From: an uncultured Gammaproteobacteria bacterium
GTDB taxonomy: Bacteria > Patescibacteriota > Microgenomatia > UBA8517
DNA length: 64,000 nucleotides
NCBI GenBank assembly: GCA_964635715.1
Contig: CAZWNZ010000001.1
Span: forward strand, 408,616 to 472,615
Direction: 5' to 3'
In this document: piece after piece, positions 8,498-58,562 of the stretch
Layout: the number at the start of each line of letters is the position of its first letter
Position numbering within the stretch: the stretch's first letter is position 1
Program-made: the position numbers and the translations under genes
The notes under the pieces: generated by a model
Told to the model about the DNA's origin: nothing
The model's database searches: none
What the model saw: the letters and a program-made list of their open reading frames with translations, nothing else

Positions 8498-8586
8498 TTT
8501 TCATTTATCAATTTTCAAAAAGTTTGATCATTGAATAATTGTGAATTTATTGTAAATTGGTAATTGTAAATTGGTAATTTAATTTT

Positions 8587-12454: not shown

Positions 12455-12509
12455 AATCTAGTTTCTAATTTCTAACTTCTAATTACTGTTTTTATGAATT
12501 ACTGTTTTT

Positions 12510-15600: not shown

Positions 15601-15723
15601 ACTCAAGTAACCAGTGATCAGTTATCAGTAATCAGTTAATTAACAAGTAATTAGTTCACTTTATTCACTTAGTGGTTACTGGTAAACTGGGAACTGATAA
15701 CTAAATACTAAATACTAAATACA

Positions 15724-16266
15724 ATGAAATCTCCACTTGTCCAAGACACTGCCAATTCAGTCAAATCAATGGCTCAGACTATTGCCAAACAGATCGCTCA
15801 GGAACCGTTGGAAATTTTAAAAGACGCGGGAACTCAGGTAAGCGGAATTGAATCAGGACAGCCACATATGGACCAAGCTTCCGGTGAAGCACCCCCAAAA
15901 AGTGAGGATATCAAAAATCAGGAAACAAAAGATCAGGCTTTTACCCAGAGACGTATGCAAGCGCTTCAGAATGAAGTAGATGAGATAAGAAAACAAAGAG
16001 TATTTAAAGACCTTCAGGCAAAGATTTCTGCAGGAGAGATGGTTGCTTTAGAAGATTACCCCGAACTTTCCATGGAGCAAAAACAGGTTCTAAAAGCCCA
16101 AGTTGAAGCAGTGAAGTTTCAGCAGGAACAAGCCAAATACCAAGCAAGTGTTCAGGAAGTTCCCACAGTTCACTCTAAACCCAACCGAAGATTTGGTGCA
16201 GGCCAAAAACACGAAGCGGAAAAACAACAAACTAGAGTTGAAAAACCTGTTCCACCATCGGGATAA
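15724..16266 (+). CDS. Hypothetical Gln/Glu-rich coiled-coil protein
   Basis: A 180-aa ORF with low-complexity Q/E/K-rich sequence. Confidence 0.4.
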   Translation: MKSPLVQDTANSVKSMAQTIAKQIAQEPLEILKDAGTQVSGIESGQPHMDQASGEAPPKSEDIKNQETKDQAFTQRRMQALQNEVDEIRKQRVFKDLQAKISAGEMVALEDYPELSMEQKQVLKAQVEAVKFQQEQAKYQASVQEVPTVHSKPNRRFGAGQKHEAEKQQTRVEKPVPPSG

Positions 16267-16378: not shown

Positions 16379-17833
16379 GTGGCTGATATTTATTTAACCA
16401 ATTCATTAACTAGGACAAAAGAAAAGTTTACTCCGTTAAAATCTAATGAAGTCGGCATGTACACTTGCGGTCCGACGGTTTACAACTATGCCACCATAGG
16501 GAATTTTAGAACTTATTTTAGTGCAGATATTTTACTACGTACTCTGAAATATAACGGTTATAAGGTTAACTACATAATGAATTTGACTGATGTAGGGCAT
16601 CTTACCGGAGATAATCTGGGAGATGCAGACACGGGAGAGGATAGGATGGTGAAAGAGGCGGAGAAGGAAAGGAAAAATGCATGGGATATTGCCAAAGAAT
16701 ATACAAATGCTTTTTTGACGGATTTTCATAAGCTTAATCTCGAAGATCCTGAGAACTTCGTTAAAGCAACAGACCACATAGAAGACCAGATTGATTTGGT
16801 TAAAAAGCTTGAAGGAAAAGGACTGACTTACAAAATTTCCGATGGAATATATTTTGACACAAAAACTTATGAGGAAAAAACTGGTTTTAGGTATGGTGAG
16901 CTTTCTAACCTTGATCAAATAAAAGAAGGGGCAAGAGTTGAAGTAAACCCTGAGAAAAAAAACCCAAGGGATTTTGCTTTATGGAAGTTCAGTTATAGGG
17001 ATGGAAGATCCTTCGACTCCGCCCAGGACGACGCTTCCCGTCGGCGCGACATGGAATGGGATTCGCCTTGGGGGGTTGGTTTCCCTGGTTGGCATATTGA
17101 GTGTTCTGCAATGAGTATGAAATATTTGGGCGAGACTTTCGATATTCATGTAGGCGGCGAAGATTTGAAGTCCACTCATCACCCAAATGAAATTGCTCAG
17201 AGCCAAGGGGCAACCGGTAAAAAATTTGTGGACTTTTGGATTCATGGTGCATTCTTAACCGTTGACGGGGGACGTATGGGTAAAAGTTTGGGAAATGCCT
17301 ATACAATTTCTGATTTAGAGAAAAAAGGATTTTCAGCATTAGACCTGAAATATTTTTATCTTTCAGGAAAATATAACGAACCAATTAATTTTACTTGGGA
17401 ATCACTGACTGCTGCTCAAAATGCTATGGATAAACTCAATTCTCAAATATCAAATCTTAGGTCTCAAAAAGGGCGAACTGTTCTTTCCGAAGAGAAGGAG
17501 ATAAAGATTGAAAATTATAGAAATGAATTTACGATAGCGATAAATGATGATTTAAATACACCGAAAGCCCTGGCTGTGCTTTGGTCAATGCTGGGGAGTA
17601 GTATTCCGTCAGAGGATAAATATGATTTAGCTATGAGTTTTGATGAAATATTAGGGTTGAATCTGGAATCTGGAATCTCGAATTTAGAGAATATAATCCC
17701 GGATAATGTAAAAGTTCTAATGGAAAAAAGGGAACAACTGAGGAAGGAAGGTAAATTTGAGGAAGCGGATAAAGTCCGAGATGAAATAACAAAAGCGGGG
17801 TATCAGGTATTTGATAAGCAAGTTAATAAGTGA
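16379..17833 (+). CDS. cysS: Cysteinyl-tRNA synthetase
   Basis: The class I HIGH region [17 protein letters not shown] is present. KMSKS-like MGKSLGN is present. The zinc site WHIECSAM is present. Confidence 0.9.
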
Positions 17834-17874
17834 CCAGTAAACAAGTAACCAGTTAGTTTTTTAGTTATCTAGTT

Positions 17875-18228
17875 ATGGATAATTTAGAGTTCTCCAAAAG
17901 GTTGGAAAAAAGGTTTGCGTTTTTTGCTGATAATGTTTATGCCATTTGCAGAAAACTTGATAAAAACATAGAAAATCGGGAGATTGTCAAACAATTAGTT
18001 AGATCAAGTGGTTCAGTCGGAGCAAACTATATAGAGGCAAATGAAAGTCTAAGTAGAAAGGATTTTTTCCATAGAATCAGAATTTGCCGGAAGGAAGCTA
18101 AAGAATCAAGATTTTGGCTTGAAAGATTATTTGGACTTAATGCTAATTATGGCGAAGAAATTAGTTTATTAATAAAAGAAACAACCGAATTTGTTTTATT
18201 GTTTTCTAAAATCTTAACCAAATCTTAA
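17875..18228 (+). CDS. Four-helix-bundle protein (23S rRNA intervening-sequence protein family)
   Basis: Diagnostic SVGANYIEANESLSRKDFFHRIRICRKEAKESRFWLE is present. It is flanked by perfect 11-bp inverted repeats. Confidence 0.8.
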   Translation: MDNLEFSKRLEKRFAFFADNVYAICRKLDKNIENREIVKQLVRSSGSVGANYIEANESLSRKDFFHRIRICRKEAKESRFWLERLFGLNANYGEEISLLIKETTEFVLLFSKILTKS

Positions 18229-18286
18229 CTATTTACTTGTTTAACTTACTGATTACTGTTAAATTGATTACTGATAACTAACAAGT

Positions 18287-18940
18287 ATGCAAGTTTTTGC
18301 AGTGATTCTAGATTTTGACGGCACAATTATTGACAGTGACTCTGCTTGGAAAAAGGCCTTTATAGGGGTTCTTGGGAACTTGAATGTGAATGTTCCCGTA
18401 GGTGCCATCAATATAACAGGAGCGTCCCTGAAAGATAATTGGAATGCTCTGATTTCAAAATATAACCTTAAAATAGACAAAACTTTTGAGGAATTGAGGA
18501 GTCTTACTTACAACGAGTATAAAAAATTAATTCCGGACATCCATTTAATTGATGGAGCCTGTGAATTTATTGAAAATTTCAAGTATTCAGGAGTTCAGAT
18601 TGCATTGGCAACAAATACAAGTTGGGAAATTGTTGATGATATAACTAAAAAGCTGGAGATAGAACATTTATTCGATTACATAACCACGGGGGACGAAGTG
18701 TTATATCACAAGCCTGACCCTGAAATTTATATTAAAGCAGCTGAAAAGATGAATCTTGAGCCTGATAATTGTATGGTCATAGAAAATACGGAGGTGGGTG
18801 TAAGAGCGGCTAAGGAAGCGGGGATGAAGGTCGTAGCGATATTATCCACCGAATACGAAAACTCCGACTCTCTATCTCAGGCCGACTTGGTTGTTGAAGG
18901 ATTTTCGGAAATAACCCCACAAGCAATAGACCAATTATGA
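18287..18940 (+). CDS. HAD-superfamily hydrolase (beta-phosphoglucomutase-like)
   Basis: HAD motif I (ILDFDGTIIDSD) is present. Motif IV is present (DD in VDDIT). Confidence 0.75.
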   Translation: MQVFAVILDFDGTIIDSDSAWKKAFIGVLGNLNVNVPVGAINITGASLKDNWNALISKYNLKIDKTFEELRSLTYNEYKKLIPDIHLIDGACEFIENFKYSGVQIALATNTSWEIVDDITKKLEIEHLFDYITTGDEVLYHKPDPEIYIKAAEKMNLEPDNCMVIENTEVGVRAAKEAGMKVVAILSTEYENSDSLSQADLVVEGFSEITPQAIDQL

Positions 18941-35327: not shown

Positions 35328-36372
35328 TGCGCTTCTAAAAAAGCAACAGGCTTATGTCGCAAACTTCCCGTTCGCGACGATTGAACCGAATATTGGAATA
35401 GTTCCGGTTCCTGACCCACGCTTGGCCAAGCTCGCAGACGTAGTAAAGAGCTCAGATAATCTTGACCATTTTCCACCGGAAGTCCCGGCTACCGTTCAGT
35501 TTGTAGATATCGCAGGGCTTATCGCTGGTGCTTCAAAAGGCGAGGGATTGGGGAATAAATTCCTAAGTCACATAAGAGAAACAAACGCAATTTGCTACGT
35601 TTTGCGAGCTTTTACCGATCCGGATGTTGTTCGCCAGGGTGTGAAAGAACCGGTTGCTGATTTCGAAGTTCTGGAAACCGAGCTTGCCCTTGCCGATCTT
35701 CAAACTTTGGAAAAACAGAAAGATCCGGGGAATACTCCGGATAAAGATCAGATAAAAAAGTGGCAAACTATCCAGAGATTAAAAAAGACATTAGAAGGCA
35801 GTACCATGGTTCGAACTATCGAACTGTCAGAAGAGGAAAATAAAATAGTTAATGAGTTGGGACTTTTAACGGCAAAACCAATACTTGTTGTGTTAAATGT
35901 TGACGAAAAGCAAGTAGCTAGTAGTCAGAATCTAGAATCTAGTTTTGCGAAGGAAATTGGGGTCGCTGAAAATCAGGTGATAGCCATCTGTGCCAAAACA
36001 GAAAGCGAGCTTTCAGAACTTTCAGAAGATGATCAGAAAATTTACATGCAGGACTTGGGAATTGACAAGTCCGGTCTTGAGAGACTAATTCAGAAAGCTT
36101 TTACAACTCTTGGCCTTGCCACATTTTTAACGGCAGGAGAAAAGGAAGTCAGAGCATGGACTATTCAAGCGGGCATTAACGCTCAGGAGGCGGCTGGGGT
36201 GATTCACACTGATTTTATTAAAAAATTTATCAAAGCCGACGTAGTCAGATTTGAGGAGTTCATTAAATCTGGCGGCTGGAAAGCCGCCCGTGAATTAGGT
36301 AAAGTTCGTTCCGAGGGCCGCGACTACATAATGCAAGATGGGGAAGTTGTGGAATTCAAGATTGGGGCGTAA
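35269..36372 (+). CDS. ychF: Ribosome-binding ATPase YchF (Obg family)
   Basis: MSLSVGIVGLPNVGKSTLFNAL is present. A TGS domain is present. The C-terminal YchF domain is present. The first 5-6 codons are supplied by the element. Confidence 0.9.
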   Translation: MSLSVGIVGLPNVGKSTLFNALLKKQQAYVANFPFATIEPNIGIVPVPDPRLAKLADVVKSSDNLDHFPPEVPATVQFVDIAGLIAGASKGEGLGNKFLSHIRETNAICYVLRAFTDPDVVRQGVKEPVADFEVLETELALADLQTLEKQKDPGNTPDKDQIKKWQTIQRLKKTLEGSTMVRTIELSEEENKIVNELGLLTAKPILVVLNVDEKQVASSQNLESSFAKEIGVAENQVIAICAKTESELSELSEDDQKIYMQDLGIDKSGLERLIQKAFTTLGLATFLTAGEKEVRAWTIQAGINAQEAAGVIHTDFIKKFIKADVVRFEEFIKSGGWKAARELGKVRSEGRDYIMQDGEVVEFKIGA

Positions 36373-36418
36373 CTAATTTCTAATTGCTAATTTCTAATTT
36401 CTAATCTATAATCTGAGC

Positions 36419-37520: not shown

Positions 37521-38753
37521 ATGTCAAGAAGAATTAATTTCGTTAAAGCCAGAAAAATTGTCTTGTCGGCACTTGTTTTGGCAGGCGTTTTTGTCGGTGG
37601 ATATTACCTCGGTATCAACGGCTATAAAGTAGAAGTTAACAAGGCTTTGACAGTAACAATCAACAGACGAACCCCCGACGATAAAAATGTTGACATGAGT
37701 CTTTTTTGGCAAGTTTGGGATCTTATTAGCGAAAAATACTACGACAAATCAAAACTTGTTCCTTCGCAGATGATTTATGGAGCAATTGAAGGAATGGTAT
37801 CTTCGGTCGGTGATCCTTACACAACATTTCTTATTCCTTCACAGAACAAAGTAGTTAACGAGGATTTAAATGGATCATTCGGCGGAGTCGGTATAGAAAT
37901 TGGTTATAAAGACGGTTACTTGGCAGTAATAGCACCGCTTCCCGGGACACCGGCAGACAGAGCCGGGGTTAAAGCCGGGGACTATATTGTAAAAATTACA
38001 GACACAATAAAAGGTGTTGATCTGGACAGTTCTACTATTAGCACAAACGAAGCTGTAACCTACATCAGGGGTGTTGCGGGAACAAAAGTCACATTAACAC
38101 TTATGAGAGATGGTGTAGACGAACCGATTGTGGTTGATCTTGTTAGGGAGAAGATAGATGTTCCTTCGGTTACGTTATCTTGGGTAGGTGAAGGTTCGGA
38201 TGTGGCAAATATTGAAATAAGTAAATTTGGATCAGAAACAAAGGGCGAGTGGGATAGTGTTGTGAGCGAAATATTAAGTAACGAAAACGTTAAAGGAATA
38301 ATTATTGATCTTAGAAACAATCCTGGAGGATATATGCAGGCAGCAATAGATTTAGCTTCTGACTTTGTTTTGAATGGAACAACAATAGTAATTCAGGATA
38401 GTGGCAACAATGATAAAGAAGAATACAAGTCAATGACTTTACCTCGGCTTGAAGACTATCAAACAGTGGTATTAATCAATGAAGGCAGCGCTTCAGCATC
38501 TGAAATTCTGGCAGGTGCATTAAGAGATCAGGTAGGAATAAAATTAGTAGGTGATAAAAGTTTTGGCAAGGGAACAATTCAGGAACCAGTTGATATGGTC
38601 GGAGGGAGCGGGGTACACATAACTACTGCCAAATGGCTGACACCCAAAGGGACGTGGGTTCATGATTCAGGGTTAGTTCCCGATCTGGAAATTGCCAACC
38701 CGGACGATACTGAGGTAGATGAGCAGCTGGAAGCTGCGATTGAACTTTTTTAA
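37521..38753 (+). CDS. Carboxyl-terminal processing protease (S41 family) with PDZ domain
   Basis: An N-terminal TM is present. A PDZ domain is present ([11 protein letters not shown]). The S41 motifs [10 protein letters not shown] and [13 protein letters not shown] are present. Confidence 0.85.
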
Positions 38754-39448
38754 GAAGAAATATTTTTGGTAAGTTCGATTATACGGTCAAGATCTCCATC
38801 AACTATTACTTCAAGCTTCCCCCAGCTTTTGCCAATTCTGTGATCGGTAACCCTGTCTTGAGGAAAATTGTAAGTGCGGATTTTTTCGGATCTCATTCCA
38901 CGGCCGATTACACTTCTGTATCCGGCCATTGTTTTTTCTTTCTCGGCTTCCTGACGCTCCCAAAGGCGTGATCTCAAGAGAGAGAGGGCTATTTGTCTGT
39001 TTTGTTCCTGGAAGCGTTCCTCGCGGGCTTCTACGACGATACCGGTGGGTTTATGAACAAGTCTCACGGCAGTGGAAACTTTATTAACATTTTGGCCTCC
39101 GTGGCCTCCAGCCCGGGTAAATTGCCATTCCAAATCATTTTGGTTGATTTGGATTTCATCTTCTTTAACTTCCGGTAAAACTACAATAGTAGCAGTGGAA
39201 GTGTGTATTCTGCCTCTTTTTTCAGTAACCGGAACCCTTTGGACTCGGTGAACTCCCGACTCGTTTTTTAGAAGATCAAAAACTTGTGGGCCGGATATCC
39301 TGATTGTTTTTTCATCGATCAAAGCAACTTTCAAGTTTTTCTTTGTAGCATAGCGGATATACATACGTAGGAGATCGGATCCCCAAAGTTTGGCTTCATC
39401 ACCACCCGTGGCACCACGAATTTCAATAAACGCTGTTTGATTATCCAT
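38750..39448 (-). CDS. prfA: Peptide chain release factor 1-like, lacking N-terminal domain 1
   Basis: A PVT tripeptide (RF1 type) is present, then [14 protein letters not shown]. The GGQ motif is present ([19 protein letters not shown]). It starts at the position equivalent to E. coli RF1 residue ~112. There is an in-frame stop 21 nt upstream. Confidence 0.8.
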
Positions 39449-39538
39449 ATTTGTCTAGTTACCAGTAATCAGTTTCCAGTTGTCAGTCAGTTAATTATTT
39501 AATTAGTTACTAACTGATTACTGAATACTGATAACTAT

Positions 39539-40880: not shown

Positions 40881-40935
40881 ATATTAAATAGTAGCATGTA
40901 GCAGGTAGTAGGTAGCAAGTAGCAAGTGAAACAAG

Positions 40936-57755: not shown

Positions 57756-58493
57756 ATGAGTGGACATTCTCACTTTGCCACAATTAAACGACAGAAGGCT
57801 GTTAATGATGCAGCCAAAGGAAATCTTTTTAGCAAACTTGCCCGTTCTATTATGATTGCAGCCAAGAGTGGTCCTGATCCCGATATGAATTTCAAACTCC
57901 GTTTTGAAATTGATAAGGCCAGAGCCGTCTCTATGCCCAAAGAAAATATCGAGCGTGCAATTGCAAAAGCAACAACAGAAGCCGCAAACCTTGAAGAAAT
58001 TACCTATGAAGGTTTTGGTCCGGGAGGAGTCGGAGTTATGATAGAGGTTGCAAGCGACAACAAAAACAGGACTGCACAGGAAATCGGAAATTTATTCACT
58101 AGGGCAGGGGGGAGCATGGGTGGACCCAATTCTGTTGCCTTTAACTTTGACCATAAGGGTTTTATGACTGTTGTCAAAAATGCGGATCCAGATACTCAAA
58201 TGCTTTCGATAATTGATTCCGGGGCAGAGGATATAGAAGATATAGGAGGCGAATTTGAAGTTTATACCGCTCCTGATAAGCTTGCTCAGGTTCAGAAGGC
58301 CCTTCTTGCTTTAGGTTTTGAAGTCAAAAATATGGAACTAATTATGAAGCCTAAAAACTTTATAGAAATAAATGATGCTGGAGTTGCCGCAAAAATAATG
58401 AAGTTTATTGATGAAGTTGAATCTCACGATGATGTTCAAAATGTATTTACTAATGCAGATATTCCAGATGCTATTATGAATAGTGAATTATGA
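57756..58493 (+). CDS. yebC: YebC/PmpR-family transcriptional regulator
   Basis: MSGHSHFATIKRQKAVNDAAKG is present. The start ATG is immediately after the TTGTTAAAATAGCTTC module. Confidence 0.9.
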   Translation: MSGHSHFATIKRQKAVNDAAKGNLFSKLARSIMIAAKSGPDPDMNFKLRFEIDKARAVSMPKENIERAIAKATTEAANLEEITYEGFGPGGVGVMIEVASDNKNRTAQEIGNLFTRAGGSMGGPNSVAFNFDHKGFMTVVKNADPDTQMLSIIDSGAEDIEDIGGEFEVYTAPDKLAQVQKALLALGFEVKNMELIMKPKNFIEINDAGVAAKIMKFIDEVESHDDVQNVFTNADIPDAIMNSEL

Positions 58494-58562
58494 ATTATGT
58501 ATTAAGCGCACAAATAACTTTCTGTATTATTCTTAATTCATAATACTTAATACTACTAATCT

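Follow-up and report, generated by a model that had tools for sequence, protein, structure and literature searches.

A four-helix-bundle protein gene between inverted heptamer arrays: a probable intervening-sequence-type cassette outside rRNA

Positions 17834-18286 of the 64-kb stretch of bacterial DNA analysed here (the window) contain a gene for a four-helix-bundle (4HB) protein of the 23S rRNA intervening sequence (IVS) protein family, and the two spacers beside this gene carry inverted arrays of 7-nt words. We consider it very probable that this interval is a discrete IVS-type cassette lying outside rRNA; that its two arms pair to form an RNA stem processed by RNase III is possible, and we propose this with more reserve. 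As judged from sequence comparison, the cassette would be the non-rRNA counterpart of the open reading frame (ORF)-bearing IVSs of 23S rRNA, gained or lost as a unit at a junction of co-directional genes. The observations behind this proposal are the bracket around the gene, its 7-nt periodicity, the covariation between left and right arms, the co-orientation with neighbouring genes, the presence or absence of the interval as one unit, and the selection acting on the protein; from them we infer pairing of the arms in RNA, cutting by RNase III, a role for the protein and movement of the element. An earlier note on this DNA had put forward an IVS-like cassette outside rRNA, and the proposal is supported in part: the window contains no rRNA, the bracket recurs in homologues, the interval comes and goes as a unit, and its design is like that of the Coxiella IVS.

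The cassette in the window

The earlier note had located the 4HB gene between cysS and a HAD gene, and the Pfam identities of the two neighbours confirm this placement. The locus is composed as follows, with all features on the + strand.

16379-17833, +: cysS, the upstream host gene (Pfam tRNA-synt_1e, E 1e-85)
17829-17855, +: 5' strand of the predicted closing stem, starting in the last cysS codons (minimum free energy (MFE) and ensemble fold)
17834-17874, +: left arm, the entire cysS-4HB spacer; CAGT-type heptamers CCAGTAA, ACAAGTAA and CCAGTTA, then AGTT-rich filler; holds the 11-mer
17875-18228, +: 4HB protein gene (23S rRNA-IVS protein / Avd-like family; PF05635, TIGR02436, PDB 2RLD), 117 aa, stop codon at 18226-18228
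18226-18257, +: 3' strand of the predicted closing stem, including the 4HB stop codon (MFE and ensemble fold)
18229-18286, +: right arm, the entire 4HB-HAD spacer; ACTG-type heptamers TTACTTG, TTACTGA, TTACTGT, TTACTGA and TAACTAA; holds the complement of the 11-mer and the TTGTTT core
18280-18287, +: third copy of AACAAGTA, in direct orientation, overlapping the A of the HAD start codon; no evidence of a target-site duplication
18287-18940, +: HAD hydrolase gene, the downstream host gene (Pfam HAD_2, E 2e-30)

The encoded protein is a member of its family by both profiles, scoring 56.1 bits (E 5e-15) against PF05635, where the curated cut-off is 33.8, and 70.2 bits (E 1.5e-19) against TIGR02436, where it is 24. 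It also matches PDB 2RLD (E 1e-10), a structure with five chains. Compared with its orthologues it has a dN/dS of 0.05-0.09, which is purifying selection. Since cysS, the 4HB gene and the HAD gene share the + strand, the 4HB gene stands in sense orientation within the presumed host transcript. For the organism's own genome our analysis covers the 64-kb window, in which there is no second copy of the 4HB gene, no rRNA and a single tRNA; the rRNA location of an IVS is thus absent here.

The perfect 11-bp inverted repeat reported for this locus is present, with TAAACAAGTAA at 17838-17848 and its reverse complement TTACTTGTTTA at 18233-18243, and these two, one per strand, are the only exact copies of the 11-mer in the window. 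The earlier note had described the repeats as flanking the gene exactly: they do bracket it, but 26 nt separate the left copy from the ATG at 17875, and the right copy begins 5 nt past the stop. It had also placed the third copy of AACAAGTA at 18271-18278, a position that is off by 9. When the two spacers (41 and 58 nt) were shuffled with their composition preserved, 10 of 5000 shuffles gave a perfect inverted repeat of 11 nt or more between them. Around the 11-mer the repeat continues over 18 nt at 89% (17838-17855 with 18226-18243), and another register covers 25 nt at 76% (17829-17853 with 18255-18279). When one mismatch is allowed, the 11-mer finds 6 matches in the window against 3.3 expected, a count that 11 of 100 shuffles reach, so it is not enriched in this form.

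The 11-mer is the best-matched part of two arms of about 40 nt, each a series of heptamer words that are CAGT-type in the left arm and ACTG-type in the right, and the AAACAAG/CTTGTTT within it corresponds to the conserved AAACAA/TTGTTT core of the family described below. The right-arm words form a forward TTACTGA/TAACTGA-like array that ends 6 nt before the HAD ATG. A long closing stem, which the earlier note had proposed to look for by folding, is predicted: the fold of 17825-18295 gives a 24-pair stem with a mean pair probability of 0.93. The duplex formed by the two 70-nt flanks is estimated at -25.4 kcal/mol, against -16.5 ± 3.3 kcal/mol for shuffled flanks (z -2.7); the fold of the whole molecule (17825-18295) has a z-score of merely -2.05.

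Presence and absence of the cassette in relatives of the same lineage

Homologous loci compared with the window are referred to by L-numbers. The gene order dnaX-ybaB-recR-hypothetical-cysS is found also in L001, L085 and L087, and the closest homologue with a long contig (P0002, 79% identical) repeats the window's order through the 4HB and HAD genes, with the same word polarity. Two loci, L085 and L086, provide an empty site: with the same synteny and an HAD protein 80% identical to that of the window, they have no cassette, and the junction reads cysS-TAG-T-ATG-HAD, the genes being 1 nt apart. The HAD gene of L085 has no leader array of any kind. Because L085 and L086 lack exactly 17834-18286 whereas the window, L087 and L001 are filled, this interval is present or absent as one unit, and the limits that the earlier note had drawn for the cassette coincide precisely with what the syntenic loci lack.

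The closest relative, L087, has a filled site, with a 4HB protein 95% and an HAD protein 83% identical to those of the window. Its left arm has TAAACAGTAA, and another 11-mer register, CAGTAATCAGT, is perfect there. Because L087 differs at this point, the perfect 11-mer is not itself the conserved feature; the real feature is the pair of heptamer-word arms of about 40 nt. L087 has a right arm almost identical to that of the window, and the right arm of L001 resembles it. Two further homologues, L003 and L004 (74% and 61% identical in the 4HB protein), lie amid other genes, and the arms of L003 hold four CAGT heptamers (left) and ACTG words (right). The flank duplexes of L001 and L003 reach -41 and -46 kcal/mol (z about -7, compared with -25 kcal/mol and z -2.7 in the window), and both loci retain the closing stem in MFE and centroid folds.

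The window and L001 share 79.5% identity in the 4HB protein, 57% in cysS and 48% in HAD. The better conservation of the 4HB protein than of its neighbours may mean that the HAD gene was replaced, or that the cassette is younger or more constrained.

The bracket as a trait of the gene family

The earlier note had suggested examining the flanks of other copies of the gene. A scan of one genome per species returned 80 loci with 4HB proteins 50-58% identical to the query, from Omnitrophota, Chloroflexota, WOR-3, many groups of the candidate phyla radiation (CPR), Bacteroidota, Planctomycetota, Delta- and Gammaproteobacteria and others, and across these many phyla the inverted bracket recurs. In almost all 80 loci tandem 7-nt words run up to the ATG and their reverse complements follow the stop codon. 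The flank duplexes of 83 4HB genes have a median z of -2.74; for 221 control genes taken from these loci the median is -0.11 (Mann-Whitney p 2e-16). A z <= -3 is reached by 45% of the 4HB genes and by 4.5% of the controls. Autocorrelation at lags 7 and 14 is 0.46 and about 0.41 in both arms, over a baseline of about 0.28.

The family consensus can be written (AAATnCn)x4-AAACAA-ATTCAA-ATG ... stop-N~20-TTGAAT-TTGTTT-(nGnATTT)x4. Intact arms hold four or five words, and the left array ends 6-12 nt before the ATG. The spacers, with median lengths of 54 nt upstream and 80 nt downstream, are taken up by the arms. The variable base of the word differs between loci (CGAAAT, CTAAAT, CCAAAT and the CAGT family); within a locus it is uniform, and it is complementary between the arms, so that left and right word types agree in 46 of 49 loci. 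Words stand in the canonical orientation 458 times and in the opposite one 55 times. In an alignment of 28 anchored loci (A1), 75.7% of the cells pair, against 26-53% when the partners are slid by one to three columns; its covariation score is 0.195 against 0.131 after shuffling, a value that none of 500 shuffles reached, and four periodic positions each occur as GC, CG and UA pairs.

These arrays belong to the neighbourhood of the gene. Same-type arrays away from 4HB genes are scarce (15 clusters in 325 kb), and the density of period-7 arrays, whatever their word, rises about 12-fold within 130 nt of 4HB genes. The cassettes also keep to one direction: the gene upstream points the same way as the 4HB gene in 74 of 79 cases (94%) and the gene downstream in 63 of 76 (83%), compared with 71% of the other adjacent gene pairs in these loci (p 1e-6 and 0.02).

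Some loci depart from the simple layout. The arrays of L017 (2951-3901) and L051 (3001-3848) enclose the 4HB gene together with a second ORF, the right arm being displaced beyond it. At L040, positions 666-798 hold a left and a right arm without a gene, 2.2 kb from an intact cassette; the doublet begins with ATGACCGAA (M-T-E), and because this common start of the sampled 4HB ORFs remains, the doublet has probably arisen from a cassette by internal deletion. Among 85 copies there were no near-identical cassettes in different surroundings, which would have pointed to recent transposition, and the two 4HB copies within L053 are merely 73% identical. The sarcin-ricin loop motif, a mark of rRNA context, was absent from the first 88 homologous loci; the rRNA-borne side of our comparison is drawn from the published description of Coxiella.

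As for the second ORFs just mentioned, that of L017 has 174 aa and looks dihydrofolate-reductase-like, as judged from the sequence without a family-library scan, and that of L051 has 124 aa and no assigned function.

Distant homologues on plasmids

A tblastn search of plasmids yielded homologues 33-38% identical to the query, mostly from Nostoc, and nine loci were inspected. An inverted heptamer bracket surrounds the gene in seven of the nine (Nostoc, Planktothrix and Chlorohelix; most of them cyanobacterial), built from unrelated words: GTCGGAG/CTCCGAC, ATTCGTA/TTACGAA, AATCGTA/CGATTTA, and ATGAAGG with its complement. Their predicted duplexes range from -54 to -83 kcal/mol (z -4.5 to -12). 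One locus has a downstream array only. Every annotated neighbour is co-oriented with the 4HB gene in the seven plasmid loci checked for this.

On the Nostoc flagelliforme plasmid (L094), arrays and gene together occupy 319-748, a segment of 430 nt bounded exactly by the outer ends of the arrays. Its flanks are shared by Nostoc sp. C057, which has an unrelated segment of 175 nt in place of the cassette. Because the relatives without the 4HB gene carry this segment, the site is a replacement and not a clean empty site.

The surroundings of the plasmid cassettes hold two further features. On the Planktothrix agardhii plasmid (L097), arrays of CCCCAAT, which we take to be the classical cyanobacterial STRR1 heptamer, lie on both sides of the AATCGTA/CGATTTA arms, at about 60 nt from the 4HB gene on its upstream side and about 95 nt on its downstream side. 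On several Nostoc plasmids the 4HB cassette stands immediately upstream of xisH-xisI (L089, N. punctiforme pNPUN01), xisI (L092) or xisH (L093), and the right-arm array of L089 ends a few bases before the xisH ATG. TAACTGA repeats and XisH/XisI have been noted to share an odd phylogenetic distribution (MacGregor 2015, PMC4679880).

Gene-less palindromes in the window

The earlier note had set against the cassette the possibility that its repeats belong to a CAGTAA-type family of intergenic words. The repeats do belong to this family, but the cassette is not refuted by the shared CAGT/ACTG words, because the other word-rich spacers are palindromic elements and not generic filler. Among the roughly 60 intergenic spacers of the window there are two such spacers besides the cassette, and both are palindromes without a gene.

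15601-15723, +: gene-less palindrome between recR and the next gene; CAGT words followed by ACTG words; fold -27.1 kcal/mol, z -2.8
39449-39538, -: gene-less palindrome between rpmE and a release-factor gene (both on the - strand); same word family; fold -33.9 kcal/mol, z -7.7 (- strand)

The 11-12-mers common to the gene-less palindromes and the cassette arms are CAAGTAACCAGT, ACTGATAACTAA and ACTGATTACTG, of which 15601-15723 has the 12-mers CAAGTAACCAGT and ACTGATAACTAA. This palindrome measures 123 nt, and the corresponding spacer between recR and the next gene is 14 nt in L085, so that it is present or absent like the cassette. The two palindromes may be deletion derivatives of cassettes, or they may be independent sister elements. 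The edge of the second one, 39449-39538, adjoins the start of the release-factor ORF (38750-39448, - strand; 232 aa), whose match to PCRF begins at profile position 98, so that about 100 N-terminal residues seem to be missing.

Direct arrays of period 7 occur elsewhere in the window, mostly just upstream of start codons, at 12457-12484, 15692-15724, 36372-36415, 40898-40927, 58477-58504 and about 8540-8586. Their words are TTTCTAA, AAATACT, TAATTTC, GTAGCAA, GAATTAT and AAATTGG/TAATTGT, and the pattern resembles the published TAACTGA repeats.

Comparison with rRNA intervening sequences and a possible mechanism

The Coxiella burnetii 23S IVS is a 428-nt insertion in helix 45 with an ORF in sense orientation; its 28-bp terminal inverted repeats form a stem that is cut by RNase III, at a site at the start of the first repeat (PMC4990558). 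Directly upstream of its ORF stand three tandem heptamers GACAGAT and a degenerate fourth, in strain-variable number, and the ORF is reported to be decaying and not translated (PMC4990558). As cited in that paper, ORF-bearing 23S IVSs have been known for about 30 years (Ralph and McClelland 1993), and proteins of the IVS-protein family assemble into homopentamers (Lin et al. 2006). Members of this family have also been reported from 16S and 23S insertions of CPR bacteria (PMC11270868) and from between cas genes (PMC3936711).

The cassette thus shares with the rRNA IVSs of Coxiella, Leptospira and others (S23p / 23S_rRNA_IVP) the protein family, a sense ORF within a host transcript, a terminal inverted-repeat stem, which is predicted here, tandem heptamers of strain-variable copy number directly upstream of the start codon, and a sporadic distribution suggestive of horizontal transfer (PMC4990558). 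It differs in its site, since the IVSs sit in an rRNA helix (the loop of 23S helix 9, 25 or 45) and the cassette at the junction of cysS and HAD in an mRNA operon. It differs also in that the Coxiella ORF is decaying whereas the cassette protein is under purifying selection, and in that RNase III cleavage has been demonstrated for the IVS, the cassette being a sequence-level finding. By this comparison the window element would have every listed IVS feature save the location in rRNA, with excision by RNase III attributed to it by analogy. The class would seem to be a variant of the rRNA IVS that crosses phyla and is so far undescribed: our search of full texts outside subscription journals gave no report of non-rRNA 4HB genes bracketed by inverted heptamer arrays, although earlier work may exist.

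A mechanism of the IVS type can be sketched on this basis. The cassette, having no recognisable promoter of its own, would be transcribed by read-through from the host operon, and its arms would pair in the transcript to close the ORF off with a long stem, imperfect and rich in AU. This stem could be a substrate of a double-strand-specific RNase (RNase III), as in the rRNA IVSs, and the cassette RNA would be cut out or separated from the flanking cistrons, so that the insertion is tolerated. The 4HB protein would be translated and needed by the element, because it is under purifying selection. This is the reading that we favour, with moderate confidence overall and more reserve on the RNA stem and its cutting by RNase III; the complementarity, the covariation, the co-orientation, the lack of an own promoter and the Coxiella precedent speak for it. 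The arms were also considered as a promoter or a terminator, and this was rejected, since the + strand of the cassette has neither a sigma-70-like promoter nor an intrinsic-terminator-like site. Rfam gave no match to the cassette down to E = 1. A defence-system role was likewise set aside, the 4HB protein having no PADLOC match.

Several points weigh against an RNA stem of this kind. The arms are imperfect, with about 70% Watson-Crick pairs in A1 and about 30% of the positions unpaired, and some unpaired positions are conserved, such as GATATT in the right arm. A plain stem needs neither the periodicity nor the concerted change of the variable base, and these suggest protein recognition or templated copying. 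The counts of G·U and A·C mismatches (100 vs 88 and 62 vs 52) are neutral on pairing in sense-strand RNA. No arrays are present on either side in 15 of 85 loci (about 18%), and some loci have them on one side. On a Bernardetia (Bacteroidota) plasmid (L090) the arrays, at 1430-1488 and 1895-1925, are direct and not inverted (AAAATCTAAC-type words). Finally, the window copy is a weak and somewhat eroded example: its duplex z is -2.7, and only two or three degenerate CAGT-type heptamers are left in its left arm, where L087, L001 and L003 have four to six.

Alternative explanations

The main rival takes the arms as a DNA-level or protein-bound repeat element, because the periodicity, the concerted words, the tracking of word type by a protein residue and the pentameric state of the protein all fit recognition by a protein. 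The arms would be terminal inverted repeats in which a 7-bp binding site is iterated, as in iterons or in the multiple binding sites at the ends of Tn7 and Mu, and a recombinase acting in trans or the pentameric 4HB protein itself would bind them and so move the cassette or maintain it; the RNA stem would be a by-product, and the gene-less palindromes would have arisen by deletion and be MITE-like (MITE, miniature inverted-repeat transposable element). We judge this unlikely, but it deserves serious consideration. It accounts for the concerted shift of the variable base throughout the words of the two arms, for the conservation of arm positions that are unpaired, for the lack of a G·U excess over A·C, for the gene-less doublets (L040 and the two palindromes of the window) and for the coincidence of presence/absence boundaries with array ends. 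The four or five words per intact arm also suit a homopentameric family, as in the five chains of 2RLD.

The residue in question was identified on an alignment of 85 4HB proteins. The position fourth from the C-terminus (residue 115 of the window protein) is R or K in 17 of 21 cassettes with CG-type words and in 3 of the 43 others (Fisher p 4e-9). In the 21 closest pairs of G-type and non-G-type cassettes, the residue follows the word type in 16, goes the opposite way in none and is uninformative in 5. An artefact at the DNA level, namely an extra word inside the ORF, was ruled out: the Arg codons vary (AGA, AGG, CGN), and because the encoding codons vary, the signal is one of the protein. This association could reflect specific recognition of the word, or it could reflect co-inheritance of gene and arms without any binding, which is a point against reading it as support for the DNA-level account. 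In the same CG-type cassettes, the position seven residues before this one loses its K.

Other evidence speaks against the DNA-level reading. No clear direct repeat that would be a target-site duplication is seen at a filled or an empty site, in the comparison of the window with L085, which are strongly diverged relatives in a CPR-like lineage, or of L094 with L098, which is the Nostoc replacement. Pfam scans of the neighbours revealed no transposase or recombinase in or beside the cassette. The strong bias towards the sense orientation is unusual for cut-and-paste elements, and the sample contains no near-identical copies at different sites. Measured as a transposon or MITE, the window element has terminal inverted repeats; a cognate transposase and near-identical copies are absent from the 64 kb seen. 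The RNA-stem and the DNA- or protein-bound readings are not mutually exclusive.

A further reading is conceivable, though we regard it as speculative and would not expect it to be correct. The 4HB protein and the heptamer arrays might form a self-contained selfish module, in which the homopentamer reads the words with about one subunit per word, four or five words per arm, in RNA or in DNA, and so promotes its own processing, maintenance or spread. The variable base shared by every word of both arms, the C-terminal residue that tracks it, the four or five words per arm and the unrelated heptamers of the plasmids in the same layout would be consistent with such a module. If it were true, the rRNA IVSs would be the copies that landed in rRNA, and the STRR sequences, the TAACTGA arrays and the gene-less palindromes would go back to the arms of such cassettes or be footprints that they left.

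Far less plausible is that the arms are ordinary heptamer repeats of gene leaders, of the TAACTGA or STRR kind and possibly translational regulators, the right arm being the leader of the HAD gene, the left one an unrelated spacer, and their complementarity incidental. TAACTGA-type direct repeats often occur just upstream of start codons in Beggiatoaceae, cyanobacteria and Bacteroidetes; they are described as unexplained and possibly horizontally spread, in a paper that does not mention 4HB or IVS proteins (MacGregor 2015, PMC4679880). The right arm of the window, forward, TTACTGA/TAACTGA-like and just upstream of the HAD ATG, has the same placement as the repeats of PMC4679880, and the period-7 arrays of other words in the window likewise lie directly upstream of start codons. 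On the other hand, the left arm consists of the reverse-complement words in mirrored order, the canonical orientation prevails by 458 to 55, arrays of the same type are scarce away from 4HB genes and period-7 arrays concentrate near them, and the HAD gene of L085 does without a leader array. Cyanobacterial short tandemly repeated repetitive (STRR) heptamer sequences are said to have been described by Mazel et al. in 1990. The TAACTGA and STRR repeats resemble the cassette arms in occurring in cyanobacteria, Bacteroidota and others, in changing copy number in 7-nt steps, in the forward TTACTGA/TAACTGA-like right arm of the window, and in that CCCCAAT arrays adjoin the Planktothrix cassette; they differ in being described as direct arrays without an associated gene, whereas the cassettes have inverted pairs around a single family, with the left arm reversed.

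It is highly improbable that the repeats are a chance match in AT-rich, low-complexity spacers around an ordinary resident gene: the spacers are AT-rich, the one-mismatch 11-mer is not enriched (6 vs 3.3 expected) and the whole-cassette fold has a z of just -2.05, but only 10 of 5000 shuffles match the repeat, and the comparative data from 83 loci (p 2e-16), the distant plasmid homologues and the indel at L085 contradict it. Less credible still is a diversity-generating retroelement (DGR), with the gene as its Avd accessory protein and the repeats as template/variable-region machinery, for while PF05635 resembles Avd and is the commonest Pfam family beside DGR reverse transcriptases (PMC10053308), Pfam scans of the neighbours reveal no reverse transcriptase within about 5 kb, the region has no template/variable repeat pair and no long direct repeat pair, and there is no PADLOC match.

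Relation to other elements and significance

Like the REP/REPIN-RAYT system, the cassette has a small gene between inverted short repeats and gene-less doublets in intercistronic operon spacers (two in the window, and L040). It differs in that its protein is a four-helix bundle (PF05635 only) and not an HUH/Y1 (IS200/IS605-like) transposase, in that its repeats are arrays of 7-nt words and not a single hairpin, and in number, with three elements in 64 kb and not hundreds. Mobile insertion cassettes and MITEs similarly have inverted repeats around one or two passenger ORFs (two in L017 and L051) and gene-less derivatives, but the cargo of the cassettes described here is always the same protein family across phyla, with no target-site duplication or cognate transposase identified. 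The Avd protein of Bordetella phage BPP-1 has a homologous fold and family, being a pentameric four-helix bundle that works with nucleic acid (PMC10053308); it differs in context, since the cassette has no reverse transcriptase, template repeat or variable repeat.

A search for the PF05635/TIGR02436 family gave at least 7997 matches at E <= 1e-3 (8000 candidates scored). We know of no function for this family outside DGRs and, for the rRNA IVSs, of no explanation of what the ORF does or how the element spreads. The cassette gives this very large family a concrete genomic context. Should this design prove common outside rRNA, both in operons across many phyla and on the plasmids of cyanobacteria in culture, the rRNA IVSs would be a special case of a larger, experimentally accessible class. 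The reading would also explain the presence of 4HB genes inside conserved operons, including those of cas and restriction-modification genes (PMC3936711; L096/L097), and it links the family to the unexplained STRR and TAACTGA heptamer repeats, for which it offers a testable origin.

Further observations

Within about 5 kb of the cassette, the neighbouring genes are dnaX, ybaB, recR, a hypothetical gene, cysS, the HAD gene, two hypothetical genes, and a response regulator with its kinase. A scan of metagenomes with the HAD protein returned no matches. Inside cysS, at 17656-17688, there is a heptamer array (GGAATCT GGAATCT CGAATTT) in a short linker that is variable among orthologues, and these words are similar to those in the right arm of the common cassette type. 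In L025, arrays of CAGGGAA lie inside an ORF for an NAD-dependent epimerase (2155-2187 and 2583-2621) and translate into a pair of similar peptide insertions, SGNREQGIGNR…SLIPGPSK and SGNREQGTGNR…SLIPDPSK; evidently, genes can carry heptamer arrays in frame.

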